Below are positions 6,101 through 63,574 of a stretch of 64,000 nt of DNA, in pieces. How positions within the stretch are numbered: the first letter of the stretch is position 1; each line of letters starts with the position of its first letter. The notes under the pieces were generated by a model, which was given only the letters and a program-made list of their open reading frames with translations, did not search any database and was not told the origin of the DNA. The stretch lies in assembly GCA_002269645.1 (NCBI GenBank), contig NIVC01001541.1:62001-126000 (forward strand), read 5' to 3'. Position numbers and translations under genes: made by a program. Origin of the DNA: Macrostomum lignano (lineage: Eukaryota).

Positions 6101-9100
6101 GAAACTGCACCCCAGAAACTGCACCCTAGAAACTGCACCCTAGAAACTGCACCCTAGAAACTGCACCCCAGAAACTGCACCCTAGAAACTGCACCCTAGA
6201 AACTGCACCCCAGAAACTGCACCCCAGAAACTGCACCCTAGAAACTGCACCCTAGAAACTGCACCCTAGAAACTGCACCCCAGAAACTGCACCCCAGAAA
6301 CTGCACCCTAGAAACTGCACCCCAGAAACTGCACCCCAGAAACTGCACCCCAGAAACTGCACCCCAGAAACTGCACCCTAGAAACTGCACCCTAGAAACT
6401 GCACCCCAGAAACTGCACCCCAGAAACTGCACCCTAGAAACTGCACCCTAGAAACTGCACCCCAGAAACTGCACCCTAGAAACTGCACCCTAGAAACTGC
6501 ACCCTAGAAACTGCACCCCAGAAACTGCACCCCAGAAACTGCACCCTAGAAACTGCACCCTAGAAACTGCACCCCAGAAACTGCACCCTAGAAACTGCAC
6601 CCCAGAAACTGCACCCCAGAAACTGCACCCCAGAAACTTCAACCTCTCCCCGAAACTTCACCCCAGCCCATGCCAGCCAGAACTCAACAGTGAGAATAGG
6701 TCAGGCGCAACACTCGATTCCTGAGCTGGCCGCCGCAGTTCTGCCCGGCGTTCCCGAAGCAGCTGTCCGCGCACTCCCCGTCAGGAGCGGCGCCGTAGGT
6801 GCCGTAGGAGTTGCCGCAGCAGCACCAGGCGCCGGCCTGCAGAGCCGCGAACTGGAAGCCGCCCAGAGCACAGATGCTGGCGCACAGCTCTTGAGTCATG
6901 TGGCTGGAGTAGGTCAGGCCCGAATCCGCAGCACTGCTGGCCTGGCTCAAGCCGCTGCTGGCGCCGAGCCGCGTGAGGCCGATGTACTTCAGTCCTTTGA
7001 CGTCCCTGCTGTTGAGCTTGTCAAAGAAGCAGCCGAGGTCCGAGGCCTGGAACTGGCGGCAGAGAGCGGCGCAGATGAGGCAGCTCAGGATCGGAGCGCA
7101 GGAGAGGATGCTGCAGACAGCGGCCATTTCCGATGCAGAAATCCCGAGTCTCTGAAATCGATACACTCGCGGCTTTTAATAATTGCTTTTAGACCTTTTT
7201 AAAAGCCCCGCGTGAAAGGTTTCCAAAGCAAACAGCGCCGCCTTGAGTGCATTATTGAGTGCCCCAGTCAGCTCAGAGATTTCATCCGATTCAATTTTAG
7301 CAAGCCCGCTTTCACGGTCGAAAATATTGGCTGCAGCTGTCTCGGGTTTTTAATTTCTGAAAACATCTATCGATATCCATTTGTCGCAACTCTGCCGCTT
7401 TTGTCTCTGCCTTTCTGTCTCTGCGTGAGCAGCGCCAAATCGATTTTTGCAGTTTTTACGGCTTTCCACCCTACATCTCCCCCTACATCTTACCCTAGAT
7501 CTCAACCTCCATATCACCTTCCATCGCAGCCTCCATCTCAGCCTCGATCCGGGCTTTATCTTAATCTCCATCCTATCTCACCCCAGATCTCAGTCTTCAT
7601 CTCAGCTTCATCTCAGCTTCATCTCAGCTTCATCTCAGCTTCATCTCGGTCTTCATCTCAGCTTCATCTCAGCTTCATCTCAGCTTCATCTCAGCTTCAT
7701 CTCGGTCTTCATCTCAGTTTTATCTCAGCTTCATCTCAGCTTCATCTCAGCTTCATCTCAGCTTCATCTCAGCTTCATCTCAGCTTCATCTCGGTCTTCA
7801 TCTCAGTTTTATCTCAGCCTTCATCTCAGCTTCATCTCAGCTTCATCTCAGCTTCATCTCAGCTTCATCTCGGTCTTCATCTCAGCTTCATCTCAGCTTC
7901 GTCTCAGCCTCTATCTTGCGCCCTCAGCCGGTAGTACCCCCTACCTCACCCTCTATCTCAGTCTCCATCTCACCCACCCTCCGCAGGGCAAGCTGGTGCC
8001 CACCGAGGCGGACCGCCAGGTGCCCCGCCAGCCGTTCGAGTTCTCGCCGGGCCGCTACAACCGGCGCAGCCTGTCGGAGCTGCCGCACCACCTGGTGAAG
8101 TCCGGCCGCTACCGGGAGTTCCTGGCTGAGGTGGCCTTCAACCCCGCCTTCCTGCACAGCCGCCTGCACAGCGGCTCACTGCGCCAGCTGCTGCAGGACC
8201 TCCGCCTGCTGGACTCGGAGGCCGAGGACTTCGAAGACGAGGATGAGGCGCTCTCGCGCAGCCGTCGGGATGTTCAACACCTGCTGGACGCGCTGCGGAT
8301 GTCGGCGCCGAGCCTGCGGCACTGCCGGAGCAGCCTGGGAGTTGACCTGTGCGGCCGCCTGCGGCACCTCGTTGAGGACGGCGAGGCGGCGAGCGAAGGC
8401 GGGGCCGGGATTGCCGGCCTGCTGACCGCCTGGAGGCGAAGGCAGCCGCGCCCGCTGCTGCTGCCGCTGACCGCCTGCTTGGCCCGCACCGGCAACGACG
8501 CCGTGAGGTGCCACTTCGATCTGCCGTCGGGCACCGGCGGCTCCGCTGCAGCCCTGCTGAGCGACGACGGCTGCTGCCTGGTGGCCAGCGGCGGCGTCCA
8601 CTGGCGCGACTTTGACGAGGGCGACCGGCTGGGAGGCGGCGGCGCGGCTTCGCTGCTGACTCGGCGGCCTCCTGATGGAGGTCGCTGGCTGGCTGGGGGA
8701 CCAGCGGCTGCGGCGGCGACGTGCCCGGAGCTCTGCTGCTGCCTGCTGAGCTCGAAGGTTGCTGAAGGGCGGCAGCGACTGCGGCTGTGGCGCTGGGACC
8801 TCCGCGACGGGAGCTGCGAGCCTCTGACTGATGCTGGGAAATGCGAGGTGGGTGTCAGAGTGACAGGGTGACAGGGTGTCAGGGTGTCAGAGTGACAGGG
8901 TGTCAGGTTGACAGGGTGTCAGGGTTTTAGGGTGTCAGGATGACAGGGTGTCAGGGTGGCAGGGTGTCAGGTTGACAGGGTGTCAGGGTTTTAGGGTGTC
9001 AGGATGACAGGGTGTCAGGGTTTTAGGGTGTCAGGATGACAGGGTGTCAGGGTGGCAGGGTGTCAGGGTCGCAGGGTGTCAGGGTGTCAGAGTGACAGGG

Positions 9101-44782: not shown

Positions 44783-47700
44783 CAGGGAATCCTAAAGACC
44801 TGGAAGTGACACTGTCCAATGGGGGCGGTCCAACTCAGGCCGATCCTACCTAACCAAACAAGGCAGCCCATGCCATTTTCTATAGGGTTTTCAGTATCAA
44901 CTCGATGATACAGCGCTGAAAAGTCATATCCCCTGAATTTTTTAAAGTCCTTATTGTAACGAAATAAACGAAAGTTTCATGAGGCCTTTTATAAGAAACA
45001 ATTATGCATAAAACTGGTAAACCATAGGCTATATAAACATAAAAAGGGTTTTAATCAAACTTACCAGGGTTGAAGGATCATCGGACATCAGAAAGGCAGT
45101 AATTATGCATCAGGATAAACTGGGAGCTTACTCGTAAATAAAATAATTAGCAGTAACTCGGAATCGTCAAAACAATGAAGCTTATAAAAATATACTATTA
45201 CGAGTACTAAGGATTCAATTTGGCCAGTTTGCGAGAGCAGTCCTCAGTTCTCTTCTGTTCTCCCGATTTCCGTTTGCCTACAACGGATGGGCGGTTAGCT
45301 TCAGAAGAAAGGTTTTTCAGAAAACAGTTTAGGAGTCGGAAAGAAAACTGCCGAATGACTTGTCTAAGTGAATGATTTGAGCAGCGGAAGCGACGAGCCG
45401 AAAATTTTGCACAGTTTTGAGTTTTTACTATCACGACTGATGCGAATGTTTGATGCGGTTTAAAGCTAAGAAGCTTCTGCAGCAGCTGCTTGGAGCCCTT
45501 GATGAGCTCAAACGAATTGAACGCTGTCATGCAGAGAACGAAAGCAGAATCCGATGGACAGCACAGTCCTCCCCGTGATGACTGTCGAACTAGGAAATCA
45601 CGATTAGGAGCATCGTCGAGAGTCACTTCCATTGGAGGGACCTTGTCTTCGCTCACCAAAAATTCTCTACAATCAGCACATCCCTTGCTGATGGACTTTG
45701 AAAGGTAACCTGCTATGTAGAACATCACGTTCAAACAGCCCATCTCGTTACTGCGCAAGGTCATGCATGGCTCATCTGACACATCAGCGAAGATTTCTGC
45801 TGCTCTTAGACTAACGTCAGTGTCTTCCTGCTCAACATCCTTCATGAAAGACTTCTTTAAGCGTAGCAAGTCTATTTCCGAGTGCTTAAGCAATGAAGTC
45901 ATTCTAAGTTTATTCTCGGACTGAACGACCTGCTTTGCACTGATAAAATACAATCCGCCGGACATCTGCCTGTACTTTCCGAACTGCCTTTCAAGAGGAT
46001 CGGACAACAACTTTCCCAGCAGAATGTAGTCAAAGTGGCCAGTAGAAAAAAGTTTCGCACACAATAGTGGAATGGCTGAGCATGTTTGAATGAGGCTGCC
46101 AAATGTCTCGTTTGTCAGACCATCTGCGCCTGTTGATACCGCTCGCCACTTCTTTAGGAAGCCAACAAAGTCAGCAAGGTACTGGAGCTGCCAGTCTTGC
46201 ATATTAGTTAGCGGCTCACTTTCCGGTCTTCTTAATTGTTGACCGGCGAATGGCGTTCGAACATTCAATATTGCCCACAGCTTCCTGATCATGGACAAGA
46301 AATTGGCTGTGCTATTGAACGTTGAAGTGTCTACCTCCGTGCTCTTTGTGCTTGAATACAGTCTGAGTGCAGAAACTGTTGTGTCATCGAACACAGCTGC
46401 AGCCAGTGAAGCACTAGTTCTCTCGACATTAAGAGGACGTAAAACCTTCTCCGACAGACGGAAGGCAATCTTTGACGACTGACCTCTTTCAATTTCAAAA
46501 ATAGCCTCAACATCACTGAACCTTGCCACAAAGTTGCTGCAATTGTCGAACGCTGGACAGTGAAATACACCTCGTCTCTGAAAGTTGTTATACACATTTT
46601 TAATGTTGTGAGTAGTGTCCATCAGCAAGAAGATTTCTTTCTGATCGTCACATGGATGTCGCATAGACAGCCCATGTTCAGGTACAGCTGACATTGAGTA
46701 AAACTTTCGGTTGACAGAGGAGTTGTCACAGGACAATGCAACAATTTCAAATCCACTCTTTGTGACAGCCGCAATCACTTCCTTGGCCATGTTGCATAAG
46801 TCCAGAGCGGTCAAGCAGTTAACAGGAAATAGACCGACAACATCCTGATAGGATGCGCCGACGGACTTGATTAGAAAGGCAAGAATTGAGGAGGTCATTT
46901 TACCGTCACTCGCAAGGCCGTAAGCAGAGTCGCAATTGAACTCGATTCTTTTAGCTGTTGCGACCTCATCAATAATGAGCACAACGTGCTTCTCTCTGCT
47001 AGACAGTGACTCTGTCCTCAACTGCAGGTACATTTCCTCAACCACTCCAGGCTCCTTCGAAAGAACAGCATTTAGCCTGACAAGGCTTCTTACAGATGGT
47101 AGGCAGAGGGCACCATTTTCTAGGATTGCCTTATAGGCGGCACGACTTGTCGAAAAGATCAAGTACGCAAACACAGTTGTTGATGGTGAATATCGTCGAG
47201 CAGATACTTTTTGATGAATCAGTGAGAACTGTTCAGCTAAGAAATTGACATTGCTGCTCAGTTCAGAATCATCACTCAAAGATTCGAGGTAGACTTTTAA
47301 AACGCCTTCAACAAATGCAGACGACACATTTGAATTGCGAGAGTCAACAGCAACAGTAGCCGAAGACTTAATCAAGGCTAACATGTTTTCTAAAGTCGAA
47401 AGCTGACGCACATGTAGCGAGTCATCTTTGAGCAGGTGTTTAAACATGCTATCAGAGCAAGAAAGGCCAGAGATGAAGACTTGGAAGGTAAGGTCCTGCA
47501 GTACTGTCATAGAGGCAAGCAGACAAGGAGCTGAAATCGAGTCAGATCTTGTTATCAAGTAAAACGAGACTGAATCTGCTTCCTTACTTCTGACGAATCC
47601 AGAGGGAATCGTCGCTTGTTCCAGCTTTTGAATCAAATCGCTGAAATCGCACAACTCGTCGGAGCCAAAAAAGTCGCTGATTTCCTCATCTAAGCGGACT

Positions 47701-48478
47701 TGGTCTCCCATGAAGCGCGCAGCGGAAGTGGCATTTTGACTTCTTACCTGCGTAATTGGCTTGCTCAGGTATTTCGGCAAGCCTTCAAATTGAGATGGAA
47801 CTGCATCGTCTTTGAGTCGAATCAGATGCAGCTTTGAATCAGATGCAGAAAAGCGTCGTTTCTTCCGGCGTTGATTCGCATCCGATGAACTCTTCACGAA
47901 ATCTGATTCAGTGAAATGCTTCGAGCAGACGCGTTGAAATTCGGAAGCATTTAAATCAGCATTTGGAATGGCGCGAAGCCAGCGCTGTCGCAAGTTGGTG
48001 TCTTTAGGAAAAGCATAATAGCTCACATTTTCTGTCTTCTGCGACGCGTAGCCAGATTTGCAGCCAAATACACAGCACTTGTAACCCATTATGATGCTTG
48101 CAAATGAGAGGATATTCAGTTTGATTATGAACACACGAAAGCTTACTTAAATGCAGCTCGATAGGGGCATAAGAGTTATGTGTGCATTCAACAGTGCGTC
48201 ATCATGTTTAGAATTCGTACACTCATGTACAATGCGCTCCTTTCATATTGAATCAGTCTTTATTTGGACAGTGATTTTCTCTGCACTCTCTATCCTCTCA
48301 GTCCACTCAACCCCTTCTCTATCCTTCGTTCCTCCCTTTTTCGAGTCGCTTTACTAGCCCCTGCAAGAAAATGTTTTTCCTCTTTGTCCTCTCTCCCAAA
48401 AAAGTTATCGGCCTGGGTTGGACCGGCCTGGAGGGCCTGAATATTGCAGTGTCACTTCCAGGTCTTTAGGATTCCCTG
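44783..48478 (-). mobile_element. Complete P-superfamily (THAP-type) DNA transposon
   Basis: Perfect 32-bp TIRs CAGGGAATCCTAAAGACCTGGAAGTGACACTG (44783-44814, 48447-48478); 7-bp TSD CCCAATC; 19-bp subterminal inverted repeat (44826-44844, 48407-48425, 1 mismatch). Confidence 0.95.
45207..48089 (-). CDS. P-element/THAP9-like transposase, intronless, 960 aa
   Basis: THAP domain MGYKCCVFGC...FPKD...RW...VCSKHF; RNase H-like catalytic motifs IIDEV, SCDNS, LMDTTH and SDPLERQFG; no stops or frameshifts. Confidence 0.93.
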   Translation of the reverse strand: MGYKCCVFGCKSGYASQKTENVSYYAFPKDTNLRQRWLRAIPNADLNASEFQRVCSKHFTESDFVKSSSDANQRRKKRRFSASDSKLHLIRLKDDAVPSQFEGLPKYLSKPITQVRSQNATSAARFMGDQVRLDEEISDFFGSDELCDFSDLIQKLEQATIPSGFVRSKEADSVSFYLITRSDSISAPCLLASMTVLQDLTFQVFISGLSCSDSMFKHLLKDDSLHVRQLSTLENMLALIKSSATVAVDSRNSNVSSAFVEGVLKVYLESLSDDSELSSNVNFLAEQFSLIHQKVSARRYSPSTTVFAYLIFSTSRAAYKAILENGALCLPSVRSLVRLNAVLSKEPGVVEEMYLQLRTESLSSREKHVVLIIDEVATAKRIEFNCDSAYGLASDGKMTSSILAFLIKSVGASYQDVVGLFPVNCLTALDLCNMAKEVIAAVTKSGFEIVALSCDNSSVNRKFYSMSAVPEHGLSMRHPCDDQKEIFLLMDTTHNIKNVYNNFQRRGVFHCPAFDNCSNFVARFSDVEAIFEIERGQSSKIAFRLSEKVLRPLNVERTSASLAAAVFDDTTVSALRLYSSTKSTEVDTSTFNSTANFLSMIRKLWAILNVRTPFAGQQLRRPESEPLTNMQDWQLQYLADFVGFLKKWRAVSTGADGLTNETFGSLIQTCSAIPLLCAKLFSTGHFDYILLGKLLSDPLERQFGKYRQMSGGLYFISAKQVVQSENKLRMTSLLKHSEIDLLRLKKSFMKDVEQEDTDVSLRAAEIFADVSDEPCMTLRSNEMGCLNVMFYIAGYLSKSISKGCADCREFLVSEDKVPPMEVTLDDAPNRDFLVRQSSRGGLCCPSDSAFVLCMTAFNSFELIKGSKQLLQKLLSFKPHQTFASVVIVKTQNCAKFSARRFRCSNHSLRQVIRQFSFRLLNCFLKNLSSEANRPSVVGKRKSGEQKRTEDCSRKLAKLNP

Positions 48479-48749: not shown

Positions 48750-51333
48750 ATGCTATCGGACGTCAGCCAACTGCAGGCAGGGGACGGCGAATCCGGCGAA
48801 CGATTTCGCCGCGTCCTCGCAGCCTGCCTAAAAGCCTCCCTCGCCGAGTCGACTGCGCACGCGCTGCCGCGTCTCGTGTCCGGGAAGCGGCCGGCTCGAG
48901 TCCGGGTAGTCTGGTTGGCGCTCTTTGGCCTCCTGGCCTGCGTGTTTGGTTATCAGGTAAATCGGCTTCGATTCAATCAAGATTCCGACATAGAATAAAA
49001 GCACATAGTAGCGGCGCCTTAATCCAGAGTTTTCAAAGTTAAACTTCAAATCAATCGCCATGGAGGTTTATAATGAGAATTCCATCTGAGTCGACGCTGA
49101 CCCAAGTATGTACGAGTACCCGTACACTGATTCCTAGAAAATTAAGCATCGACACGGGACCGCTTTGGAATGACTATTAAGCTCGCTGTAATTGCTACTC
49201 GCCTAAACCGATTTCAGGCGTACAGCTTCGTGCTGAAGCTGATTGACCGTCCAGAGACCACGGGCATTCAGCAGGACTCGGTGCCCATGGTGTTCCCGGA
49301 CCTATTCTTGTGCCCCCAGCCAGCAATGTCTGGCAGCTATGGGAACTACGTCAGTAATGAGACAGCGGACCAGGTGAACGGATTCATCCACGCCATTGCC
49401 AGGCAGCTGAACTTCACTCCGCAGACGGACAAGGAGACTGAGACCTTCATCCGGATCCTACTCAGCACCATGCCCTACCGGCTGCTGAGCGACGAGTTCG
49501 CGCACCAGTTCCAGCAGGCCATCCTGTACGACCTGTACTCCGACAACAGAGCCATGGAGCTGGCCGGAAACTCCACCGGCTCGCTGCTGGTCTTCCACAG
49601 CCCGAGCCGGCTCAACTGCTTCCACATCCGGCTGACGGCCGAGCGGCGAGCCTTTCTAGAGGACCCGAGGAACTTCCTAACGGTCTACCTGTTCTCCGAC
49701 GCGCCCATGGCTGGACTTTACCCGACTCACTCGCGCCTGGGCCGCGTGCCATACGCACTCATCAAGGATGGCGTCGGCTTCTCCATGTGGGACCCGGAGT
49801 ACGGCATGTCCATCCGCAGCGGGGCGGCCATGACGCTGCAGATGGTGCCGCCAGGCCACTATCCGACCGACGCCGCCGCTGCAGTCCTGATTGAGCCGGG
49901 CAGCGAGTGCAGCATCAGCCTGCGGATGTCTCAGCTGGCCATGCAGGACGGCATGGAGTGCGTTGCCGAGTCGCCAAAGGCGCGAATCGTCAACCCCTAC
50001 ACGGAGCAGGTCGAGGAGTTCGAATACAGCGACCATCTATGCTGGATTGAATTCAAAGAGCTGATGAGGTACAAGAAGCTGGGCTGCATTGAACCCACGG
50101 CGCCTCGACTTAAAGCGTTCAGCTACCTGCCCAGGTGTTCATCTGGTTAATTTGTTCTACTGACAAATCGAATTAGAAAGCATCTTTAAATTCCAGATCC
50201 CTCTAAGCGCTTATGAATTGTGAACTTTTGTGCAGACCCTCCAGGTGGTGTTTAGGGAAGTATGGGCTACGGCTTATAGGATAGGAGTCAATGCTCGCAC
50301 CAAGGCTACACAAACTTGCTTTGGTTTTTTGGTGTGCCTTTCAAAGCGTGTATAGCTTACTCCAAATAATGTCACCATGCGACCCTGAAGAGAATAGAGA
50401 CTTGTCAGTCTGTCAAACTGTCAAACTGGGCAAGGCTAGCTTGTATAAAGTATAGTCAAGCGACATAAATGTCTATGGCCAAGAACAGAACCTCTATCAG
50501 CTGTGGTAGATGCTGGCTACTGCTAAGGAGCTGTGCAGTGCATCTTTGTAATAGCAATAGCTCCAGGTCTCCCAACTCAACCCCGCAGGTGCATGGACGC
50601 CCGTGGCTACTTGAACGCCAGCCAGCAGGACAGGCGCAGCTTCCTGCAGGCCAGTCTGGCGATGAAGCGGCAGCACTTCCAGTACGACCTGGAGGCTGTG
50701 CGCTCCGCTTGCAACCCGCGCCGGCCCTGCCGCCAGAACCACTACACAGCCACCACCCACTCCATTCGTTGGCCGTCCTTCAACGGCTACCAGGACGCCG
50801 TCCTGCGCCGGATGTTCTCCGACATCGCCAGCACGAAGCGGCGTACAATGGGCAACTTCACTTATCCCGGATACGACGTCCTCACCAAGCTGTTGGACGA
50901 GATGGAGGCCAACTACACGGCCGCCAGCCGGGCCCGCATTGCCTCCTTCGCGTCCATCATGGTGTCGAAGGTGACCATCAAGACAGCGGCCGCCATGGGC
51001 TCGGTGGTGACCATCAGCCGCGCCTATACCGCGTTCGACTTTGTGTCCAACGTTGGTGGCATCCTGGGCCTGTACCTGGGCTGCTCGCTGCTCACTCTGT
51101 TCGAGCTGTTCGAGCTGCTGCACAGCGTCTGCTTGAGCCTCCGGCTGTGCGATTGCCGATCGCGGCGGTGGCCTGAAGGCAGCGGTGATGCGGAGGCTGC
51201 GGCCGCAACTCAGGCTGAAGCGGCGAAGTCGGCGGTGCCGATGGAGTCGACCGAGAGCCGTCGGCCTCCTCCGCCTCAGGAATGGGGCGGATTTGTGCAA
51301 ACCCTGCGACTGCGGGTGCTGGATCTGGAGTGA
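48750..51333 (+). CDS. DEG/ENaC (amiloride-sensitive channel family) subunit
   Basis: Exons 48750-48956, 49218-50134, 50589-51333 (about 622 aa). ESTAHALPRL, TM1, FPDLFLC, CNPRRPC...Y...WPS, and TM2 signature FVSNVGGILGLYLGCSLLTLFE. Confidence 0.9.
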
Positions 51334-51414: not shown

Positions 51415-51630
51415 ACTAGATGCCAGTAGAGTGAATATGGACGGTGGAGTGATTAGATAGAGTGTGGAGTGACTAGATAGAGTGTGGAGTGACCAGATAG
51501 GTGTGGAGTGATTAGATAGAGTGTGAAGTGACTAGATAGAGTGTGGAGTGACTAAATAGAGTGTGGGGTGACTGGAGACAGTGTGGAATCACTGGAGGCA
51601 GTGTGGGGTGACCGGAGACAGTGTGGGGGG
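51415..51630. repeat. Degenerate 20-bp repeat after the ENaC stop
   Basis: GACTAGATAGAGTGTGGAGT variants. Confidence 0.8.
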
Positions 51631-52265
51631 TCACATGTGTGGTGTTTACGAGTCTGAGGCCCTGAAGTTCAGCCCGGGTGAATTAAATGCCGAATTCTAT
51701 TATTAAAAGTACGAGATGTCCTGCAGCTGTCTCGGAGCAAAATATTGATGCGTTTCTAAAGTCCTCAAATACATGTAAAAGCAGCACATCAGAGATAAAA
51801 GTTCTATTTCTATCTCCAGTTAAAGCTGTCAGTCATTAATTAGTTTAGCAGGGCCTTCCCGCGTCACTCACCTGCTCTCTGCTTGTTTTCAACCTTTAAT
51901 GTGGAAGGTTTCATGTTTTCATTCTAGTATTCTATGCACACTACTGACTTGGGTTGGCAGTAGCATGATTCTCCAGAGTAGTAAGTGCATTAATTTAAAA
52001 AAAATTAATAAAGCTTGCTTTATTTAACATAGAATTTTGCTCAGATAAAAAATTAAATGCGGTCCATCAAAATAACAGGTGTAAAAGTTCACTTTAGAAT
52101 TTTTCTTTTAACTGCTTGTCAAGCTTCACTGCATCGCAAAGATCAGTGCTAAATGATCACTTTTGAATCGAATGAACTGGCTTTCATCCGTTGTCTTTCC
52201 TGTGACATTTTTTCGTCTTTTTCTGCTTGTTCCATGCTCGATTTTTTTGCTAAAGTCAAACAAAG

Positions 52266-52418: not shown

Positions 52419-53328
52419 GGGGAACGCTAAGACACAGAGCAATGGAATCAGAGCTGAAGCGGACCAGCCCAGGCGGATTTCCTCAACTACCGGGAAACCA
52501 GGCAGAGCGAGGTCGGCATCTTCACAGATTGCTGGATATTTCTGAGCAGCAAACAGATGGAGTTGAGCGATCGCTATGAAGGACTCTGCGGCAGGCACAT
52601 TTGCAAACTCGGACTAAACAAATGGCAGTCCTATTCTGAGCAGGCTCAATGCAAAACGCATTAGCCAGAGCTGACTCACTCAGGCTTGCCTGGCACCTGC
52701 GTGCTTCGGTTCGGGCGGCAGCTCAAAAGCCACTGAAGCGTAGCGACCCGCCAGCCATTGTGAGGGTAAGAGAGTGGAGGGGAGACAATGGCCCGCCTCG
52801 CTCAGCTGCCTGCTTGCGCCAGCCTGAGTCTGAGCTGAGCAATAACTCCACAAGAGCTATACAACTCTGTTTAAGAATTCGAGTCCACACTCTGAGCAGT
52901 ATAAGACTCGAACAATAGTTGCTACGCTGTCAGCATGGGGAGAGCAGGCAGGTGTGCCTAGCTGCTGCAGGCAGAAGGCAATTAGATATCAGATGGCAAC
53001 AGAGAGCCACAACTCATGCAGCTGCTGGGCAGATCAATGAGATTCGCGCCGCCAGGGGGCTCAACCAGCGGTGGCAGGCACGGAGACAAAAGGCATCGAA
53101 CTTAGCTGAGATGAAGATGGGGTTGGGGGGCGGTGAGTGCAGCTCTCAGAGCTTCGTGCCACAACTCGCCCGAGCGCTACTTGGCCAGGGGGCATCAGAC
53201 AGAGCAATCTGGAGTCACAGAGTTTCATTTGACACTGCCGTGTGCTGAGCTATTTTCATATCAAGCTCGACGCTTACTGCCCGAACCGGTGAGGCTGTCA
53301 AGTCTACGAAGTTTTGTTGCCTTTTATG

Positions 53329-53990
53329 TGGCGCTAAAACGAGTGTCTGTGGCGCTAAAATGAGTGTCTGTGGCGCTAAAATGCGTGTCTGTGGCGCTAA
53401 AATGCGTGTCTGTGGCGCTAAAATGCGTGTCTGTGGCGCTAAATTGAGTGTCTGTGGCGCAAAATTGAGTGTCTGTGGCGCTAAAATAAGTGTCTGCGGC
53501 GCTAAATTGCGTGTCTGTGGCGCTAAATTGACTGTCTGTGGCGCAAAATTGAGTGTCTGTGGCGCTAAAATAAGTGTCTGCGGCGCTAAATTGAGTGTCT
53601 GTGGCGCTAAATTGAGTGTCTGTGGCGCTAAATTGAGTGTCTGTGGCGCTGAAATGAGTGTCTGTGGCGCTAAAATGCGTGTCTGTGGCGCTAAATTGAC
53701 TGTCTGTGGCGCAAAATTGAGTGTCTGCGGCGCTAAAACAAGTGTCTGTGGCGCTAAAACAAGTGTCTGTGGCGCTAAAATGAGTGTCTGTGGCGCTAAA
53801 TTGAGTGTCTGTGGCGCTAAATTGAGTGTCTGTGGCGCTAAATTGAGTGTCTGTGGCGCTAAATTGAGTGTCTGTGGCGCTAAATTGAGTGTCTGTGGCG
53901 CTAAATTGAGTGTCTGTGGCGCTAAAATGAGTGTCTGTGGCGCTAAAATGAGTGTCTGTGGCGCTAAAATGAGTGTCTGTGGCGCTGAAA
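53329..53990. repeat. 21-bp minisatellite GTGTCTGTGGCGCTAAAATGA
   Basis: About 31 units. Confidence 0.95.
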
Positions 53991-54689
53991 TGCGCCAAAC
54001 GAGCCGTTGTTACCCCACCATAAAATCTGTGGCAATGTCCCTGCCTCTGCTTGTGCCCTCCAACTACATTTTTTAACCTTTTAACTTGCTGGGAGCTTTG
54101 AGCAAAGTTGTTAGTGTTGTTCATCTCCAGAATTTTGATCGAACTCTCCTTGAAATTTGGAAATGGAATGCTGGTCATTCATTCAAATTTTATTGTCTGA
54201 CAAGCCGAGCGGACTGGGCAGGCTGCTTGCAGCCAATCTGTGTCTTACAAAACTCCTATCTGGGACAAAGCAGAGCTCAAGGCAAGCCCAGGCAAGACCT
54301 GCCCGAGCCGGCAGCCACCCCTGCCCCCAACCCCAGCCCAGAAAAGGCTTGAAATACGAAGCGAGTTCGGGCCCCAAACAAGAGCTCAGAGTAGAGTTGA
54401 GACTTTGAGTCAGAGACTCAGCCAGCATGCAGCAGACAGCCAGAAGCTGCCAGAGTGAGCCGATGGAATTGAGCAGGTGAGTGGCGCCGTTACCAAACCA
54501 AATTCCAAAGCCTGTTCGGGGGCTCAGGAGTCAGGTGCAATGCGTTGTACAAAATTAATTTAACTAAGCAGAGGCGAAAGTCTTCTGCGAGTTAGAAACA
54601 ACTGTCGTATTGCACCTAACCCGCCCACGTTGAGCTGGATTGAGCGACATGCTGGTAGTCTGTGCTGATAGACCGAGTTTTCACTTCCT

Positions 54690-55256
54690 AAGCCCACTGA
54701 GACTGTCTATGGCCAAAAGACCATTGGTTCAGTGCAATGTGTGTTTTAGTCAGCCTATGCATGTTGAAGCGCACGGCAGCCCACTGAGACTGTCTATGGC
54801 CAAAAGACAATTGGTTCAGTGCAATGTGTGTTTTAGTCAGCCTATGCATGTTGAAGCGCACGGCAGCCCACTGAGACTGTCTATGGCCAAAAGACCATTG
54901 GTTCAGTGCAATGTGTGTTTTAGTCAGCCTATGCATGTTGAAGCGCACGGCAGCCCACTGAGACTGTCTATGGCCAAAAGACCATTGGTTCAGTGCAATG
55001 TGTGTTTTAGTCAGCCTATGCATGTTGAAGCGCACGGCAGCCCACTGAGACTGTCTATGGCCAAAAGACCATTGGTTCAGTGCAATGTGTGTTTTAGTCA
55101 GCCTATGCATGTTGAAGCGCACGGCAGCCCACTGAGACTGTCTATGGCCAAAAGACCATTGGTTCAGTGCAATGTGTGTTTTAGTCAGCCTATGCATGTT
55201 GAAGCGCTCGGCAGCCCACTGAGACTGTCTATGGCCAAAAGACAATTGGTTCAGTG
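54690..55256. repeat. 87-bp tandem repeat (about 6.5 near-identical units), interrupted by the Gypsy insertion
   Basis: The last unit breaks at ...TTCAGTG, directly followed by the LTR start TGGACAAG. Confidence 0.95.
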
Positions 55257-55824
55257 TGGACAAGTCGTGGTACCTGCGGTTTAGGCTACTGGTTTTCTAT
55301 TTGCTACTAAGGATTTTACTAGTGGATTATTGTCTGCTGCACTGATTTGAGATTTGGTAGTTTCGCTGCCACCAGGTTCCTGCTGTTCCCTAATTCTAGC
55401 TTTTAGGTTTAAAGAACTGAGCCAGGACACCAATTTAGACTTAGTTAACACAAAAAAATATTTAATAAAAGTAAATTACGGTACAAAAGTTAGTTTTGTT
55501 TTACATTAACTCCTTATTCCCGCTATAGTGCTTTGGGCAAGACTCCCAGTATTTTAGAGGCAAGACTCCTCTGTACAAGCCTAACCCTTATATTTCCCTT
55601 TCTTACCACTTCTTCGCGAACTCTCTAAGTTAAACAGGAGAAGACACTCCAACGAAAGGCTTTCTTTCCCAAGAGCCCAACTGCTCTGTATTTCTAAAGG
55701 AACCCCGATTTTATCCACTTACCCCTGCTCTAATTATTTTCCCGGGTTGAAACTACTGATAGTAGGGTAAAAGCATATTTAAACCCACAAAATTTCCCGT
55801 TCCTAAAAGTAATGCCCTACTACA
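55257..55824 (-). repeat. 3' LTR (568 bp, TG...CA)
   Basis: TG/CA termini, adjoined by the PPT; 55257-55674 matches 63157-63574. Confidence 0.85.
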
Positions 55825-55834
55825 CCTCCCCCTC
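55825..55834 (-). promoter_or_regulatory. Polypurine tract
   Basis: GAGGGGGAGG immediately before the TGTAGT start of the 3' LTR on the minus strand. Confidence 0.8.
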
Positions 55835-56338
55835 GCTACAAAAATGTGCAAAACCCCCTTTTGTACATTGATGATTATATTTATTAACAAAATTTTAGTT
55901 ACGTAATAAATATTAGTGCGCTTTTCAGCGATATACTGAATATAGGGATGAAGTAAGCAACTATTATGAATATGAAAATGTAATGCGTAAACATGAATTC
56001 CTAGACAATGTAGGATATATAATGAATTATTGATATTAAGTTGCATATTGCTATATTGCTAAAACAAAAAAAAATTTTTTTTAGCACACTACAACAACAA
56101 GATATAAGCATAAGTGGTGTGTGTCTTATTAGCATCGGATTGAGTAATGTTGGCACTATTAAGAATAACATGTAGACATATCAAATTAGAAAACTGCACG
56201 CAACGTAAAATGTGGACAGGTCTTTATGTAAAAAAAAGGAAGTGCTATGATTAAAGCAAGGCAGCGATTTAATGCAATTTGTCCCTAGAGATGGTAAAAA
56301 TAGCCAATATATAGTAAAATGCAGTTCGATTACTCTAG

Positions 56339-57061
56339 TTAGATGTCGTGTACAGGCCGAAGATTATTAGTGTTTTGCGCCGATGCATACAATAAGCCGT
56401 TGACCGGGATCATTTGGCGCTCCGGGTCGAATTTTCCCGCCAAGAACTCTAGTTGCTCCATGGTGACGCTCATACTGAAGGGGCCGCATGCGTTACTTTC
56501 CGCATACTGGAGGCAATAGGTACAGGCTATTTCGTAGCACTTAATTGCCTCCTCCTTGGTCGCTGTCGTTAAGAAACGCGCGCAGGCTTCGGGTAATTCG
56601 GTTTCGAACATACCGGTCTTACCCGTCCTTAGTATGTACTTCTTGAGGGCCCGGCGGCAGCGTCTAAACTTCCTCTTTTGCTCCTCTGGGTCTACTTGCG
56701 GCTCGGCTGGCTCCTCTGCTGGTTGCTGTCGCTCTTCTTCTTCCTCTAATCCGTCTTCCTGCTGGCTTCCTTCCTCATACTGTCGCACCTCTTCCATGAA
56801 TCTGGTCATCTCCTCTCGGAACGCTTCTTCCTCTCTTTCCGTCTCCCTTTCCAACTCTTCCAAGTCTATGTCCACGACCAGTTTTCCTTCGGGCTCACCG
56901 TTCTCTTCCGGTTGCTCTAATTTCTGCTTCTTGCATTCTTCTCCTCGCTCTGCCAATTGTACGGCCCTAATTCGCGGGGGCTCATTCTCATCTTGCTCCT
57001 GTCTTCTTCCTTGGCCATAGATGCGTTTTTTTGGATAGACGCGGACTGGGGCGTCGACCAT
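56339..57061 (-). CDS. Gypsy ORF3 of unknown function (240 aa, acidic, Cys-containing C-terminus)
   Basis: Open, non-repetitive ORF starting 2 nt after the pol stop (TAA CT ATG), between pol and the PPT. Confidence 0.7.
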   Translation of the reverse strand: MVDAPVRVYPKKRIYGQGRRQEQDENEPPRIRAVQLAERGEECKKQKLEQPEENGEPEGKLVVDIDLEELERETEREEEAFREEMTRFMEEVRQYEEGSQQEDGLEEEEERQQPAEEPAEPQVDPEEQKRKFRRCRRALKKYILRTGKTGMFETELPEACARFLTTATKEEAIKCYEIACTYCLQYAESNACGPFSMSVTMEQLEFLAGKFDPERQMIPVNGLLYASAQNTNNLRPVHDI

Positions 57062-57063
57062 AG

Positions 57064-60000
57064 TTATTGAGATGTTGGCTGCAAGAGGTTAAATGGGTTA
57101 AACAACTCCGCTATCCTCTGCACATAACTTTTCCGGTTTGGCCTGACAGTTAATCTATCTGGAGCATGACGCTCTCTAGCTGGCCTAGCTTCTAAATTAC
57201 TCCCTAGATTATTGTTATTATTTAATTGTACCGGCATAACTCCTTGTACACCTACTAAATTATTTTGATTATTATTTTGATGCTGCACTTGTTGATTTGG
57301 CACTGACTGCACATTATTTTGATTTTGCACTGGCATAAACTGCTCATTATTTTGATGTTGCACTGGCATAAACTGCTCATTATTTTGATGCTGCACCGGC
57401 ATAAACTGCTCATTATTTTGATTTTGCACTGGCATAAACTGCTCATTATTTTGATGTTGCACTGGCATAAACTGCACTGCGTCTTCGTACTCGTCTTCAC
57501 TTTCTGAGTCATTGTACACATTCGGCTGGCTATTGGCTAACTGTTCCCTATTGTATTGTTTCCTCTGCTCTTTTGGCTTAGTACTGGCTTCTTCTTCCTG
57601 ATAATCTGCTTGCGGTACTTTCATTAAATTATCCCTATGCATAATAAGTTCTTCCTTTCTAGCCTTCTTATTTTTGGTAACTGGTCTAATCTTAAAGACT
57701 ACTTCTGATAATTGTTCTACAATTTCATAAACTGCCCTCTGTTTTCTGTGAAATTTGTTAGCCTCTGTGTTAGCAATTACTGGATTATTGATAAATACTA
57801 AGCTTCCTACAGGCAATGTTTTCGGCTTAGGCTTGTTAGAGTACTCCTGCTCACGGTTTTGTTGCACTAATTTTAATATCTTTCTTGCTAGTTCTTGGCC
57901 TTCCTGCAGATTCTGCTGATGATCCTGGACATAAGATGGCAGGTCCTGAAACTGCTTTGGCTCGTTCAGCTCATTGTCACAGGGCATTCTGGCCTCTCGT
58001 CCAAAGACTAAATAGTGCGGACTAAATCCTGTGGCAGTGTGCGTGCTGGTTCTCAGAGCTGTTATGCAACCTGGCAACAGAACGTCCCAGTTGGAATGCT
58101 CCTTCTCCAGTAAACAGGTGAGAATTGATTTAATCTGCTTATTAAGGTTTTCTACTAAGCCATTGCTCTGCGGATGATAACTAGTTGTTCGAGTGTGTCT
58201 AATGCCATAGAGGTCTAAAAATTTCTTAAAGGCCCTACCAGTGAACTGTGTTCCCTGGTCTGTGTGAATCCATTGTGGAATCCCAAAATCAGCGAAAACT
58301 CGTTCTTGTAGAATTTTGATAACTGTTTTAGCCTTCTGATTCCTAATTGCAAATGCGAATGGAAATTTGCTAGTGCTGTCTATGACTGAAAGTACATATT
58401 TGTTTCCTGATTTGCTAGTTTGGCCAATAGGTCCTATTAGATCTATGTGCAATCTACCGAATGGTTCGACTACAGGATAGTTCTGAATTGGTGCCTTAAT
58501 TCTTCGTCTAGTTTTGCTTTCTAGGCATGATTTACATTTGGCTACGTAGCGCTCAACTGCTGTTGCTAATCCTGGCCTCCAAAATCGAATTTTAATTCTC
58601 TGATAAGTTTTATCTCGACCTAGATGTCCCGCTAACGGTGAATCATGGAATTGGTGAAAGACTTCACTATCCAGAGACTTGGGCAACACTACTTTTGGAT
58701 CAGTCTGCCCCATAGATAAGTCTACTTTGAGTACGCCGTCCTCAATTCTGAGCAACTCATAGTAACCTAAGAGGTTCCTACAGTCGTGGGTTAACTCTAG
58801 TCGTTCTTGAAATGTCGGTTTAGGCGAGTCATTCTCAATTAAATTTCTAACAAAGCCTACCGCCGGATCGGCTAGCTGTGCTGCGATCAATTGGTCACGG
58901 CGAACTGGGCTACGGAGATAGTCACTGAGCAGGGCATTGCATGCAGGCGGATTTCCGGTTTTAGGCTCCTGTCCCTGTCTATTGTCTCGCCGACTGCTAC
59001 TAAAGATCGGAGTATTGTGTCGGTTCGTGACAGTGTCTTGTGACGAACAGCATGACGGAACTCCACTGCTCGAGCTACAGGTTTCAGCGAACGCGGAATT
59101 GCCTGAGCTGACAGTAAAAGCTGATGCTGGGTCTGTATTCACAGTTGCCCTACAGCTTAGCGACCTGGCATGTGGGGACATCTCTTCCGGTTGAGGATCA
59201 GGGATCCTGGATAGAGCGTCAGCATTCACATGTTTAGGGCCACTTCTATGTTCTATCTCAAAATCAAATTCGGAAAGTCTTTCGATCCAACGACCTAAAA
59301 TGCCTGTCTGTTCGGTTTGGCGAAGCAACCAGGTTAGGGCATTGTGATCAGTGCGCACCTTAAAATGTTTTCCTACGAGGTAAAATCTAAAATACTTCAG
59401 CGAGTCAACAATCGCTAGAAGCTCCTTCCTCGTAATCGGATATCTAGTTTCTGACTGCCTCATTTTCCGACTATAATACGCGATCGGTCTTTCTATGCCG
59501 TCGCTCTGAACTTGATTCAAGACCGCCCCAATTCTGACATCTGATGCATCAGTGTCTAACACAAAATAAACTTGGGGGTCTGTATTAAACTCTGGGTAAG
59601 CAAGCACTTCTTCGGAACACATCCGTTCCTTCAACAATTCGAAGCATTCATCATGAATCCTGGTCCATTTGTCCTGGATACATTTGATGTTCTTCTTAGT
59701 TAACTCACAGAGTGGTGCTGCTACCTCGGCAAAATCTCTAACGAATTTTCTATAGTAATTACAGAGTCCGAGAAAACTTCGAAGCTCTGTCACAGATTTA
59801 GGTTTCGGCCAGTTCCTAATTGATTCTAATTTCGACGCATCTCTCTTAATTCCTGTTTTGCCTATGACGTGTCCTAGATATTGTAATTCTGATTTGAAAA
59901 GGTGACATTTCTTAGCCTTTAGTTTCATGTTAGCTTGTATTAGTCTCTTGAGCACTTCTTTCAGGTTTCTAAATGCGATTCAAAGTCTGCACTATAAACT

Positions 60001-61691
60001 ATTACATCGTCTAAGTAAGCTATGGCGAACTTTTGTGCAATGTCCTTAAGAACTAAGTTCATGCACCTTTGAAAAGTTCCTGGAGCTCCTTGCAATCCCA
60101 TTGGCAATACTTCGTACTCAAACGAGCCTCGATGTAAGGTTGGAAAGCTAGTCTTGCACTTATCTTCTTCCCTAAGAGCTATCTGATAATATCCCGAAAA
60201 TAGATCTAACGTAGAAAATTGACTGGCTCCATGGAGACATGAAAATGTTTCATTGATATTAGTTATTGGATACGGAAAGTACTCCGATTTATTGTTTAGT
60301 GCTCGATAGTCGTTAACTAATCTCAGCGAACCGTCTTTCTTAGGTACTATGACTAATGGAGTCGAGTACTGCGAGTAACTAGGCCTAATTATGCCTCTAG
60401 CCAACATGAAATCCAACTGCTCATCTACCTCCTTGATCCAATGAGGTGGAATCTTCCTAGCTGGTATCTGAACTGGGTTGTTATCCTTCAAGATAATTTC
60501 ATGTGTGACTAAATGCGTTCTGCCTAAGTCTAACTCGTGCTGCGAGAAAGCTGCTGAATGTTCCTTGACGACCTCGATCACCTTTTGTCTCTGTTCCTGA
60601 GTCAGTTCAGTTCCTATGTTAATCTCACTAATCCAGTCTTCTGACTTCTCCTGTACCTGACTGATCTTTTCCCTGTTTCCGCAAGACTGCGTGTTCCTAT
60701 TCTGCTCCTCTTCTGGCTGTTCCTTGAGATAGTTAAGCTCGCTAGCTAAGAGTGGTTTAGCCATCCCAACTAATGCTGATGCTGGTACTCTCGCTTCCTG
60801 TGAACTGGTGTTGATCACTTCTAAGTAAGCTTCCCCTTGTCTTAGAGTTACTAAACTTGGCACTACGGTTACCTTCTCTGTTCTAGTCTTTAATCCTGAT
60901 CTGAGTGGCTCAACAACTGATGGCACTCCGAAATTAGTTTCACTACCTGCTGCTAATCTGACCTTGACTAATCCTGAACTATTGGCTGGAACTGTCGTCT
61001 TTTCTGCGACATAGATTCTCCTAACCTGAGGCTTAGCTCTGGTTGATCGAAGCGGAATTCTAGTTCCTTGTTTCATGGTTAGCATTCCTGCATCGAAGTC
61101 AATAGTAGTACAATAATTTTGGACAAACGTCACACCTATTACATTGTCTACATCTGCGTCACATAAGAGAAACTCAACTTCTTCTTCGAAATCGCCAAAT
61201 GTTGCCTTAATAACTACGAAACCCTTAATTGGAATAGGCTCTTCCATAAAGGAAACAATTCTATTGTCCCAATGCTTAATTAGATGCCTATTCTTGCCAG
61301 TGAAAAGATGCTTCCAGGTTTCGCGTCCTAAGATATTTCTATTACTGCCAGTGTCTAATAGATAAACTATTTTCTTATTTAAAATGCTGCCAGTGATGTA
61401 CGGATCGTAACGTTGTTTTTTAGTTTGTTCAGTTAATTTTGGTTGTTTTAGCTGCTGCTTGCTAGAATAAGGTTGCTGTTGTGGTGCGTTTGAAAAGTGC
61501 TGAGAATAAATATTTGGTTGATTAAATGATTGATTAAATGATTGCGCATGCCTACTGCTATACACTGAAGAATTCAATTCACTATTTACAGAAAAATTAT
61601 CGCTGCTATTTACAGGTTGTGAGGCTACAGACTGTGAGGGATCTACTGCTGGAAAGCGTTGCCTCCGACGCTTCCGTCTACTCCGTTTCCC
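57064..61691 (-). CDS. Gypsy pol (protease, RT, RNase H, integrase) with a 1-bp frameshift in RT
   Basis: LLDTGS protease; YLDDV RT; LDTDAS..IGAVL RNase H; HH-CC (FHDSPLAGHLG...CKSC) and D,D,E integrase (HIDLIGP, HTDQG, VENLNK). Split into ORFs 59961-61577 and 57064-59955 at about 59967. A 33-bp coding repeat (QFMPVQHQNNE) lies near the C-terminus. Confidence 0.9.
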
Positions 61692-62701
61692 GAATTCTGC
61701 TGCTGAGGGTAATGCGGCTGCGGGTACTGCGGCTGCATCTGCTGCTGTGGGTACATCGGCTGCTGATACTGCGGCTGCTGATACTGCGGCTGCTGATACT
61801 GCGGCTGCTGGTACTGCATCTGCTGCTGAGCCGGGTACCTAAGCTGGTTCTGAGGATGTGGCTGTCTACAATTCTTAGCTAAGTGACCTAGCTTGCCACA
61901 CCTGTTACACTTTACTGGGGGACGCCCTTGCTGATTCTGGCCTTGCTGCTGCTGACCTGACGGCTGCTGCTGCTTGACCTTTTGCTCAACACTTTGGTGG
62001 TGTCGGAGTAACTCCTGAAGCACCTTCTGCTGGTTTTCTAGCGCCTCACCCTGTTTGCGGACCAATTCCTTCAAGCTATTCTCAGCTTCGTCTCCTCCAG
62101 TTGCCTTACACTGCTGCGGGTCTCTACCTCGGCGAGACATAGCGTACGCCATTTCAATACGTCGCAAGACTCGACGTGTCTCTTGAAGCGAGTTTACCTG
62201 AGCTAGCAGTAGCTTCTCTCTAGTCTCTGGGGCAACCCTAACACCTCTAATGAACTGTTCCACCACCTCTTTCTGTCTCTGATCGTTAGTTAGATGGGGA
62301 AACGCCCTGCATGCTAGCTCTGTTAGCTTCTCAGCGTAGTCATCAGTGCTTTCAGTTTTGCACTGGAACCTACTACGGAACTCTTCCCTAGCTTCTTGAG
62401 CACTACCTACATGCGTGAACCGCTCGATTAGCCTATCTTTAAAGTCTGCGTATGCTAGATTAGGATCTAAATTTAGCCTTGTCACGATAGCGAACGCTGA
62501 CTGAACATCTAGGTTAGACAGTAGCTCATTCTTCCACTCAGCTGGGGGTATCTCATCTGCGATACACCTCTGCTCAAAAGCCTGAATCCACACGTCTATA
62601 TCCTGATTAGGCGTGTACTTTTGGATCCTAATATGTTTCCTAATGTCTAGCCTGTCTCTAATGCCTTTAGCCAGTGCTTCTACTACGTCATTCGCTTCCA
62701 T
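61643..62701 (-). CDS. Gypsy gag
   Basis: 352-aa ORF with the CCHC zinc knuckle CNRCGKLGHLAKNC and gag-like FRSRFQCKTESTDDY...L. Confidence 0.9.
   Translation of the reverse strand: MEANDVVEALAKGIRDRLDIRKHIRIQKYTPNQDIDVWIQAFEQRCIADEIPPAEWKNELLSNLDVQSAFAIVTRLNLDPNLAYADFKDRLIERFTHVGSAQEAREEFRSRFQCKTESTDDYAEKLTELACRAFPHLTNDQRQKEVVEQFIRGVRVAPETREKLLLAQVNSLQETRRVLRRIEMAYAMSRRGRDPQQCKATGGDEAENSLKELVRKQGEALENQQKVLQELLRHHQSVEQKVKQQQPSGQQQQGQNQQGRPPVKCNRCGKLGHLAKNCRQPHPQNQLRYPAQQQMQYQQPQYQQPQYQQPQYQQPMYPQQQMQPQYPQPHYPQQQNSGNGVDGSVGGNAFQQ
61651..61691 (-). promoter_or_regulatory. -1 programmed ribosomal frameshift signal
   Basis: Slippery G GGA AAC in the gag frame, 9-nt spacer, stem GGAAGCGT/ACGCTTTCC; the -1 frame is open into pol. 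Confidence 0.7.
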
Positions 62702-63144: not shown

Positions 63145-63154
63145 GCTGCCACCA
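63145..63154 (-). promoter_or_regulatory. Primer-binding site (compatible with a tRNA-Leu 3' end)
   Basis: TGGTGGCAGC 2 nt after the CA end of the 5' LTR. Confidence 0.75.
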
Positions 63155-63156
63155 AT

Positions 63157-63574
63157 TGGACAAGTCGTGGTACCTGCGGTTTAGGCTACTGGTTTTCTAT
63201 TTGCTACTAAGGATTTTACTAGTGGATTATTGTCTGCTGCACTGATTTGAGATTTGGTAGTTTCGCTGCCACCAGGTTCCTGCTGTTCCCTAATTCTAGC
63301 TTTTAGGTTTAAAGAACTGAGCCAGGACACCAATTTAGACTTAGTTAACACAAAAAAATATTTAATAAAAGTAAATTACGGTACAAAAGTTAGTTTTGTT
63401 TTACATTAACTCCTTATTCCCGCTATAGTGCTTTGGGCAAGACTCCCAGTATTTTAGAGGCAAGACTCCTCTGTGCAAGCCTAACCCTTATATTTCCCTT
63501 TCTTACCACTTCTTCGCGAACTCTCTAAGTTAAACAGGAGAAGACACTCCAACGAAAGGCTTTCTTTCCCAAGA
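63157..63574 (-). repeat. 5' LTR, truncated (418 of 568 bp)
   Basis: Direct repeat of 55257-55674; similarity ends abruptly after CCCAAGA. Confidence 0.85.

Follow-up and report, generated by a model that had tools for sequence, protein, structure and literature searches.

A conserved non-envelope accessory gene downstream of pol in a clade of flatworm Ty3/gypsy retrotransposons

Introduction

In errantiviruses and retroviruses the slot that follows pol holds env. A third open reading frame (ORF) that is not env is already known in general, from bdelloid rotifers, from Cer1 and from the MDG1 group. In the available part of their description, the third ORFs of bdelloid LTR retrotransposons lie in the env slot, are modular and are typically expressed from spliced messages, and they encode recognizable enzymes (DEDDy exonuclease, GDSL esterase) or membrane proteins (PMC5408684). 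Cer1 of C. elegans encodes CERV, presented in the accessible sections of PMC10309623 as a novel, fast-diverging nuclear accessory protein of 517 amino acids made from a spliced mRNA, with exons shared with gag, a Cys-rich loop and a G-protein-like domain. Elements of the MDG1 group have no env but do carry accessory ORFs, which in some cases follow pol; their sORF2, 60-210 amino acids in length, contains a membrane segment and, in many cases, a motif for myristoylation (10.1101/2025.03.14.642691, available in part).

We have studied a Ty3/gypsy element of the flatworm Macrostomum lignano in which the slot after pol is occupied by a third ORF, here termed ORF3. The window is the whole stretch of DNA that was analyzed, 64,000 nucleotides in length.

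Results

The element lies on the minus strand, with gag followed by a pol that contains reverse transcriptase (RT), RNase H (RH) and integrase (IN). Pfam matches occur in the order Retrotrans_gag, zf-CCHC, RVT_1, RT_RNaseH, Integrase_H2C2, rve. Long terminal repeats (LTRs), a primer-binding site, a polypurine tract (PPT) and a short target duplication are all present, as in a Ty3/gypsy LTR retrotransposon.

63157..63574, minus strand: 5′ LTR, 418-bp part within the window
63145..63154, minus strand: primer-binding site TGGTGGCAGC, presumably of the tRNA-Leu type
61643..62701, minus strand: gag (Retrotrans_gag, zf-CCHC), from ORF and Pfam match
57064..61838, minus strand: pol (RT, RNase H, integrase), from ORF and Pfam match
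57061 to 56339, minus strand: ORF3, accessory gene, 240 amino acids
55837..56338, minus strand: 3′ untranslated stretch, which together with ORF3 forms a divergent block
55825..55836, minus strand: PPT
55257..55824, minus strand: 3′ LTR, 568 bp

The pol frame is −1 relative to gag, and a candidate slippery heptamer G GGA AAC is found at 61691-61685. Within RT the pol of this copy contains a frameshift near 59970; contigs of all four runs compared disagree with the window sequence at this point, so that it may be an assembly error or a real change private to the window copy. The 3′ end of pol includes a Q/N-rich stretch and the clade-wide motif RPxR..PxRL..K.Y. The Q/N-rich linker is encoded by a 33-nt tandem repeat (57266-57508), the length of which differs among copies.

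The two LTRs, 568 bp each, do differ at one base as the first-pass annotation had reported, but it had missed an insertion of ~7.1 kb that splits the 5′ LTR, the remaining 150 bp of which lie beyond the window (L031 8718-8867). The insertion (window 63575 onward; L031 about 1575-8717) contains two long minus-strand ORFs of 940 and 961 codons, is flanked by a duplication of ~15 bp at its ends and looks like a LINE. The target duplication of the element is AGTG; a 4-bp duplication is also seen in six of the seven other copies with resolved ends, a further 15 copies being unresolved. The element sits within an 87-bp tandem repeat, the array at 54604-55386 being its insertion site, and other tandem repeats of the window are found at 53201-54109 (21 nt) and 51424-51639 (20 nt). 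Elsewhere in the window there is a THAP/P-element-like DNA transposon (44783-48478) whose 32-nt inverted ends are perfect and whose transposase, of 960 aa, is intact, and there are pieces of a DEG/ENaC (ASC) channel gene on the plus strand (49170-51333).

ORF3 begins with an ATG 2 nt past the pol stop (TAA CT ATG) and runs for 240 codons. Its end had been placed about 500 bp before the PPT, and the measured distance is 502 nt (PPT at 55836-55825). The sequence features originally claimed for the protein, a basic PKKR patch, an acidic stretch and KRKFRRCRRALKK, are all present. Two parts of the protein are referred to in what follows.

56849..56881, minus strand: putative SUMO-interacting (SIM-like) motif LVVDIDLEELE, residues 61-71, with a hydrophobic core and an acidic flank
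56375..56689, minus strand: C-terminal domain, residues 125-229, a predicted five-helix bundle (AlphaFold pLDDT 83.6, pTM 0.77; dN/dS 0.065)

Searching the genome with ORF3 gave 36 DNA matches and, at the protein level, 145 match segments with identity falling to about 30-40%, and comparison of two match tables places an ORF3 match next to 40 of 40 pol-end matches. We examined 41 copies, comprising the window and 40 loci picked partly for long open frames (a false positive, L062, was dropped), and in 26 of these ORF3 is intact, with a length of 240-284 amino acids. With a codon model on 18 alleles, the N-terminal part has a dN/dS of 0.13 and the C-terminal domain one of 0.065; these values are approximate because recombination violates the single tree used. 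Pairwise values for the C-terminal domain, taken from distant pairs with measurable dS, lie between 0.04 and 0.13. The number of match segments, the proportion of intact copies and the low dN/dS show that ORF3 is more than a chance reading frame. Conservation in sister copies had been put forward as a check on ORF3, and the outcome (26 of 41 intact, with dN/dS ~0.07-0.13) is that of purifying selection. ORF3 is a real, family-wide gene.

On a simple hydropathy scale the best 19-residue segment scores 0.64 in the window ORF3 and ≤0.65 in all 26 intact alleles, in agreement with the reported absence of a signal peptide and of a transmembrane segment. A Cys-rich metal-binding domain in the C-terminal region is not supported, since only two of the seven cysteines (C160 and C180) are invariant; C183 is replaced by Ala or Thr in a second subfamily and C192 is private to the window copy. 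A conserved zinc finger is therefore rejected. What is retained of the nuclear accessory protein of the first-pass annotation is a conserved, non-env accessory that is probably soluble and nuclear.

SUMO is tied to piRNA-guided chromatin silencing. The SUMO-interacting motif is loosely defined, as a core of four V/I/L residues flanked by acidic ones and lying in a disordered region (PMC12751080, in the part available). The motif of ORF3, LVVDI followed by DLEELE just before a predicted helix in the disordered part of the protein, fits this loose definition. In a clade with the accessory protein fused to integrase (see below) the corresponding sequence is (V/F/C/Y)IDLT, and basic patches are common to the accessory proteins. 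A relaxed SIM pattern matched 31 of 46 accessory proteins (0.16 expected from shuffles) and the strict pattern [VILFYC][VI]DLT matched 13 of 46 (0.035 expected), a contrast inflated by the patterns having been written after inspection of the sequences; the relaxed pattern is missing from 15 of the 46, among them every member of the L086 clade. The host has intronless SUMO genes, with at least seven copies at L132-L137, several of them in inverted pairs.

The reading that we favor, tentatively and with a confidence just short of even, is that ORF3 is a conserved non-env accessory of a flatworm Ty3/gypsy clade, and that a spliced message of its own would yield a soluble nuclear adaptor binding SUMO-modified host silencing factors. 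We rank this host-silencing adaptor ahead of an integrase-targeting module and of a regulator of the Rev/CERV kind.

We have compared the same slot in related elements. In a tree of the integrases of this genome only, the nearest clades are 63-68% identical to that of the window, and the motif RPxR..PxRL..K.Y is common to them at the end of pol. Past the motif, 43 of 57 sister loci encode a disordered region ending in a helical domain of ~105 amino acids, about half of the 57 having been selected through that domain. In the L076/L084 and L086 clades this module is in frame with integrase without a stop, while in the L087 clade it is a separate ORF after a stop, like that of the window family. 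Five local hhalign comparisons of ORF3 with the sister domain gave P = 0.031, 0.3, 0.0044, 0.077 and 0.0078; the alignment took the same ungapped register over ~46 columns each time, and its score was reached by one of 150 block shuffles in each mode. Using a sister-only profile, an ORF3 copy was the top non-member with E of about 0.1 in three of four rounds. Genome searches with the sister domains did not recover ORF3. Taking these suggestive profile scores together with the shared position and signals, we consider it probable that the sister-clade helical domain, whether the end of an integrase extension or of a separate ORF, is homologous to the ORF3 domain.

The slot may also be empty. In a sister subfamily of three copies, L075, L122 and L123 (G000:C109, C659 and C1605), pol stops early and is followed by neither acceptor nor accessory ORF, with 573 nt from the pol motif to the PPT and the AATAAA signal (see below) kept. 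The gene is evidently dispensable in cis. A further lineage, L104 (G000:C947:208500-212100), has a pol stop, an acceptor at +59 and its own ATG, with a downstream ORF that meets the end of the locus. In L074 (G000:C2038) and L111 (G000:C822) a fragment similar to the L086-type domain lies 0.7-1.5 kb downstream of a degenerate ORF3; this arrangement may be a nested fragment or a recombinant.

The position of the module is that of chromodomains and other targeting domains. ORF3 might be an integrase-targeting or tethering module, an integrase C-terminal extension that was split off in some clades, which would bind integrase or the pre-integration complex and steer or protect insertion. That pol of the L076/L084 and L086 types runs directly into the module would be explained in this way, and the SIM-like and basic motifs would suit tethering to chromatin. 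However, the fused clades retain an acceptor and an internal ATG, which points to a free protein, and the window family and the L087 clade have a stop before the module. Moreover, integrase cores that are 95-100% identical occur in copies with modules only 29-51% identical, which fits a tight interface poorly. The flanks offer no help to the targeting idea, with no tRNA genes in seven flank pairs and a tandem repeat in one of the seven, although this is a small sample and too few flanks are resolved for any pattern of insertion preference to emerge. We regard a targeting role as unlikely, while noting that it is the strongest of the alternatives to a host-silencing adaptor.

The 26 intact ORF3 copies fall into eight allele classes, between which identity is 40-77%, and the gag-pol backbones carrying different alleles are 98-100% identical within a subfamily. 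Copies with RT, RNase H and integrase 99-100% identical (dS from 0 to 0.1) bear ORF3 proteins that are 59-65% identical with dS saturated. Thus the window and L061 share 64% of ORF3 amino acids (dS saturated) and 100% of RT/RH/IN (dS 0.035-0.08), and L043 and L035 share 59% of ORF3 and 100% of RT and Gag (dS 0). Comparing L053 with L061 in 250-nt bins, identity is 95-100% over 6.25 kb except for one tandem-repeat bin, 50-66% in ORF3 and the 3′ untranslated region (UTR), and 97-98% in the LTR. Young copies, with LTRs 99.6-100% identical, carry different alleles. The alleles are themselves mosaic; L033 combines the N terminus of L032 with the C-terminal domain of L061. The sister clades present a similar pattern. 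Integrase is 100% identical in nucleotides between L083 and L120 while their accessory proteins share 45% of amino acids, and the clearest pairs have integrase 98-100% identical in DNA and accessory proteins 41-51% identical.

With at least eight old alleles on near-identical gag-pol, ORF3 behaves as a swappable cassette. The diversity could arise either from selection that keeps old alleles or from homogenization of gag-pol between old families.

A related possibility, that ORF3 and the 3′ UTR form a matched pair of protein and cis element, was ruled out, as the domain and the UTR recombine. L034 and L046 have UTRs 88-95% alike with ORF3 domains 72% alike, in L049 and L043 the distal UTR is 94% alike and the domains 69%, and domains 60-65% alike are found with LTRs 80-96% alike. 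The same observations bear on ORF3 as a regulator of the Rev/CERV or Tas type, which would bind element RNA or the LTR and promote the export of unspliced RNA or transcription. An element that makes both spliced and unspliced RNA needs to export the unspliced form, which CERV, itself made from spliced mRNA, does for Cer1 (PMC10309623, available sections); the Arg-rich runs of the sister proteins and the basic patches of ORF3 would also suit such a role. Yet the alleles do not travel with a cognate cis element, and ORF3 is without a C4 Cys finger. We judge this regulator slightly less probable than targeting, and thus also unlikely.

The favored reading, in which ORF3 would be a host-facing adaptor, includes a message of its own, and a predicted acceptor and a predicted poly(A) signal, listed here with a nearby hairpin, bear on how such a message might be made.

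57079..57102, minus strand: predicted 3′ splice acceptor TTGCAG with upstream TTTAAC repeats, in the last pol codons
55880..55885, minus strand: AATAAA, the only one in the 3′ UTR and 61 nt upstream of the 3′ LTR; a predicted proximal poly(A) signal
55845..55867, minus strand: short conserved hairpin that separates AATAAA from the PPT, predicted at about −4 to −7 kcal/mol in 23 of 23 copies

The predicted exon would start at 57078, 17 nt before the ORF3 ATG. The sequence [T/C]TNCAG is enriched at the trans-splice acceptors of this species, in which 30% of genes are leader-spliced (PMC8629364, in the part available). The TTNCAG site of the elements is located 45, 47 or 59 nt past the pol motif, and the first ATG follows the site by 7-29 nt. 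TTNCAG followed by C was found at 89 of 94 motif sites, which are not independent (about six lineages, with some loci included twice), compared with one of 230 background ATGs. The first ATG after the acceptor has a purine at −3, seen across the integrase clades sampled. The acceptor is codon-aligned at +45 in the window family and lies at +47 and +59 in the sisters, and thus in two pol frames, so that it is not a by-product of the protein and is likely to be an RNA signal. The annotated 402-aa protein of sister locus L076 (P0007) begins at the first ATG past the acceptor, residue 555 of a 956-aa open frame, and ignores an in-frame Met 12 codons upstream. Its tag style fits the RNA-based annotation described in the available text of PMC5730564, which may point to a transcript boundary at its start.

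In all 23 family copies compared the UTR contains one AATAAA, 60-66 nt upstream of the LTR, and its placement in the sister clades is similar; that the gene-less sister subfamily keeps it weakens the link of the signal to ORF3. The hairpin is predicted in both subfamilies with stems that differ, the energies being given without a shuffle control.

We consider it likely that ORF3 is translated from a processed message, produced by use of the acceptor, through cis- or trans-splicing, and by termination at AATAAA. Cis-splicing would draw on a donor in the LTR or leader, and trans-splicing on the spliced leader of the host. A strong conserved donor was sought and rejected, GTAAG being present in the leaders of both subfamilies but at different places; CAG/GTAC at the LTR end is shared, and may be only the integrase attachment end. 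Ending at the proximal AATAAA, the ORF3 message would lack the PPT and so could not be reverse-transcribed.

At the RNA level, contigs of seven sequencing runs, presumed to be RNA and of a kind that drops rare forms, include unspliced pol-ORF3 contigs; in none of them is a junction seen at the acceptor, and neither leader nor poly(A) sequence is among the loose ends listed. The first-pass annotation had left two routes of expression, a spliced RNA and termination-reinitiation. The first is favored by the acceptor found across clades. For the second, in which ORF3 would be translated by reinitiation after pol (or from an internal promoter) with the acceptor motif unused, there are the ATG 2-6 nt past the pol stop in the window family and the fact that all contigs across the junction are unspliced. 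Against this, the stop-to-ATG spacer is 2, 3, 4 or 6 nt across copies, the fused clades without a stop share TTNCAG and the ATG, and the motif persists in two frames; with pol itself limited by a frameshift, reinitiation behind it would probably also yield very little protein. This route is improbable in our estimation. Read-through of the stop is ruled out, as the frame varies with the spacer.

On the plus strand, which is antisense relative to the element, positions 58117 and 61616 are joined by contigs of two presumed RNA runs, each from a different study, leaving out 3.5 kb bounded by GT..AG. That strand offers a good donor and acceptor; the deletion is absent from every copy examined, and of 40 genomic matches none breaks off at the acceptor. 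The join is possibly a spliced antisense transcript, although a microhomology of 6 nt would also allow a DNA deletion.

In the AlphaFold model of ORF3 the N-terminal half is disordered with one long acidic helix, and the C-terminal five-helix bundle is confident. Foldseek searches of PDB and viral libraries with the model returned no match at E ≤ 0.001. Pfam returned no family over cut-off for the window ORF3 and none at E < 0.006 for 11 sister domains, and the ESM Atlas had no usable match for ORF3 or one sister domain. In a set of 5.8 billion proteins an ORF3 alignment query (restricted to 132-497 aa) and a deeper alignment query found no match, and a sister-domain alignment query matched P0007 only. 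HMMER over 1.84 billion representatives gave six matches, all confined to short repeated segments of long proteins (WD40 in two cases), and these were discarded. None of nine own-family ORF3 alleles was present in an exact-match protein collection. No homologue outside this species was found in these sequence searches, and capture of a known host gene, which the first-pass annotation had named as a refuting outcome, is unsupported by the Pfam, profile and structure searches. Profiles of the enzymatic ORF3 families (DEDDy, GDSL) did not match ORF3 or the 11 sister domains. A J domain was rejected, HPD being found in the C-terminal 125 amino acids of none of the 46 accessory proteins, with no DnaJ match.

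Wide structure searches were headed by cullin N-terminal repeats (Cul3, Z 7.2, rmsd 3.4, 100 residues aligned). With the C-terminal domain alone, the top five rows were Cul4B, Cul5, Cul2 and Cul3 twice (Z 5.8-6.7, rmsd 3.9-4.4, 110-114 aligned). Overall the cullin-repeat matches (Z 5.8-7.2, rmsd 3.4-5.6, 100-115 aligned) are tied with unrelated bundles and are not significant for helical bundles. ORF3 as a cullin-repeat-like decoy that sequesters or recruits ubiquitin-ligase adaptors would account for cullins topping both searches, but with scores below the meaningful level, 6-11% identity and the Foldseek result given above we think it very improbable. Finally, we discount almost entirely an env remnant, cell-to-cell fusogen or neutral cargo, since despite the env slot and a probable env-like splice, none of the 26 ORF3 alleles contains a signal or membrane segment, the model is all-helical and soluble, and purifying selection is strong; the original assertion that it is not env is upheld. 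As to homology with a viral fusion protein, Pfam gave no match over cut-off and the viral fold libraries none at E ≤ 0.001.

Discussion

In the adaptor reading, the basic patches would carry the ORF3 protein into the nucleus, the SIM-like motif would dock on SUMO, and the five-helix bundle would bind a host partner, with the protein acting in trans. Template switching in the conserved flanks would swap alleles, and conflict with a host protein would keep many old alleles alive. The SIM-like motif and the allele diversity favor such host-facing counter-silencing; the in-frame fusion to integrase favors targeting. To our knowledge, few animal retrotransposon proteins that act on host silencing have been described. 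A fuller and decidedly speculative version, which we think doubtful, would have the element RNA behave as an operon. The host spliced leader and the poly(A) signal before the PPT would excise a message that cannot be reverse-transcribed, encoding a SUMO-binding counter-silencing protein of a new fold family, many ancient alleles of which would be shuffled onto a uniform gag-pol in a frequency-dependent conflict with the host.

The same slot being separate, fused or absent, together with many old alleles and recent insertions, amounts to a natural experiment within the genome of one tractable flatworm. Such a pattern would be expected from an arms race at a protein interface and directs the search for a host partner. 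If the acceptor is a spliced-leader site, a retroelement would be exploiting host trans-splicing for expression of an accessory gene, a use for which we found no instance in the titles and abstract beginnings of the literature searched. Nor was ORF3 named in titles or abstract beginnings, and the available parts of PMC12801592 are silent on it; supplements 2-5 of that paper, an earlier classification for this species, and Repbase may describe it.

ORF3 can be set beside five known systems. Like the bdelloid third ORFs it is a non-env gene in the env slot, modular and probably expressed from a spliced message; unlike them it is soluble and cannot be assigned to any known family, in some clades it is joined to integrase, and it exists as old alleles on one backbone. 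Compared by description only, CERV is likewise a novel, fast-diverging accessory of an invertebrate element, nuclear as ORF3 is predicted to be, but it shares exons with gag and has a Cys-rich loop, whereas ORF3 follows pol and has two invariant cysteines. Retroviral and errantiviral env, with its swapping (see also PMC10536682), is similar in slot, in a probable acceptor at the end of pol and in the exchange of a 3′ gene among lineages on a uniform pol. ORF3 differs from env in having no signal peptide or membrane anchor, and its elements carry a candidate poly(A) signal ahead of the PPT, not in the LTR alone. Plant Ty1/copia elements couple splicing to premature termination and so produce a subgenomic RNA, as proposed here; in the accessible portion of PMC5580714 that coupling is demonstrated and the short RNA encodes Gag, while the ORF3 version is predicted and would encode a 3′ accessory protein. 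ORF3 also falls outside the sORF2/FAST definition, with 240-285 amino acids, no membrane segment and a start of MA or MV. What is new is an unnamed protein family that is fused, separate or absent among related elements, with its own predicted acceptor and poly(A) signal and a deep allelic polymorphism on a uniform backbone.
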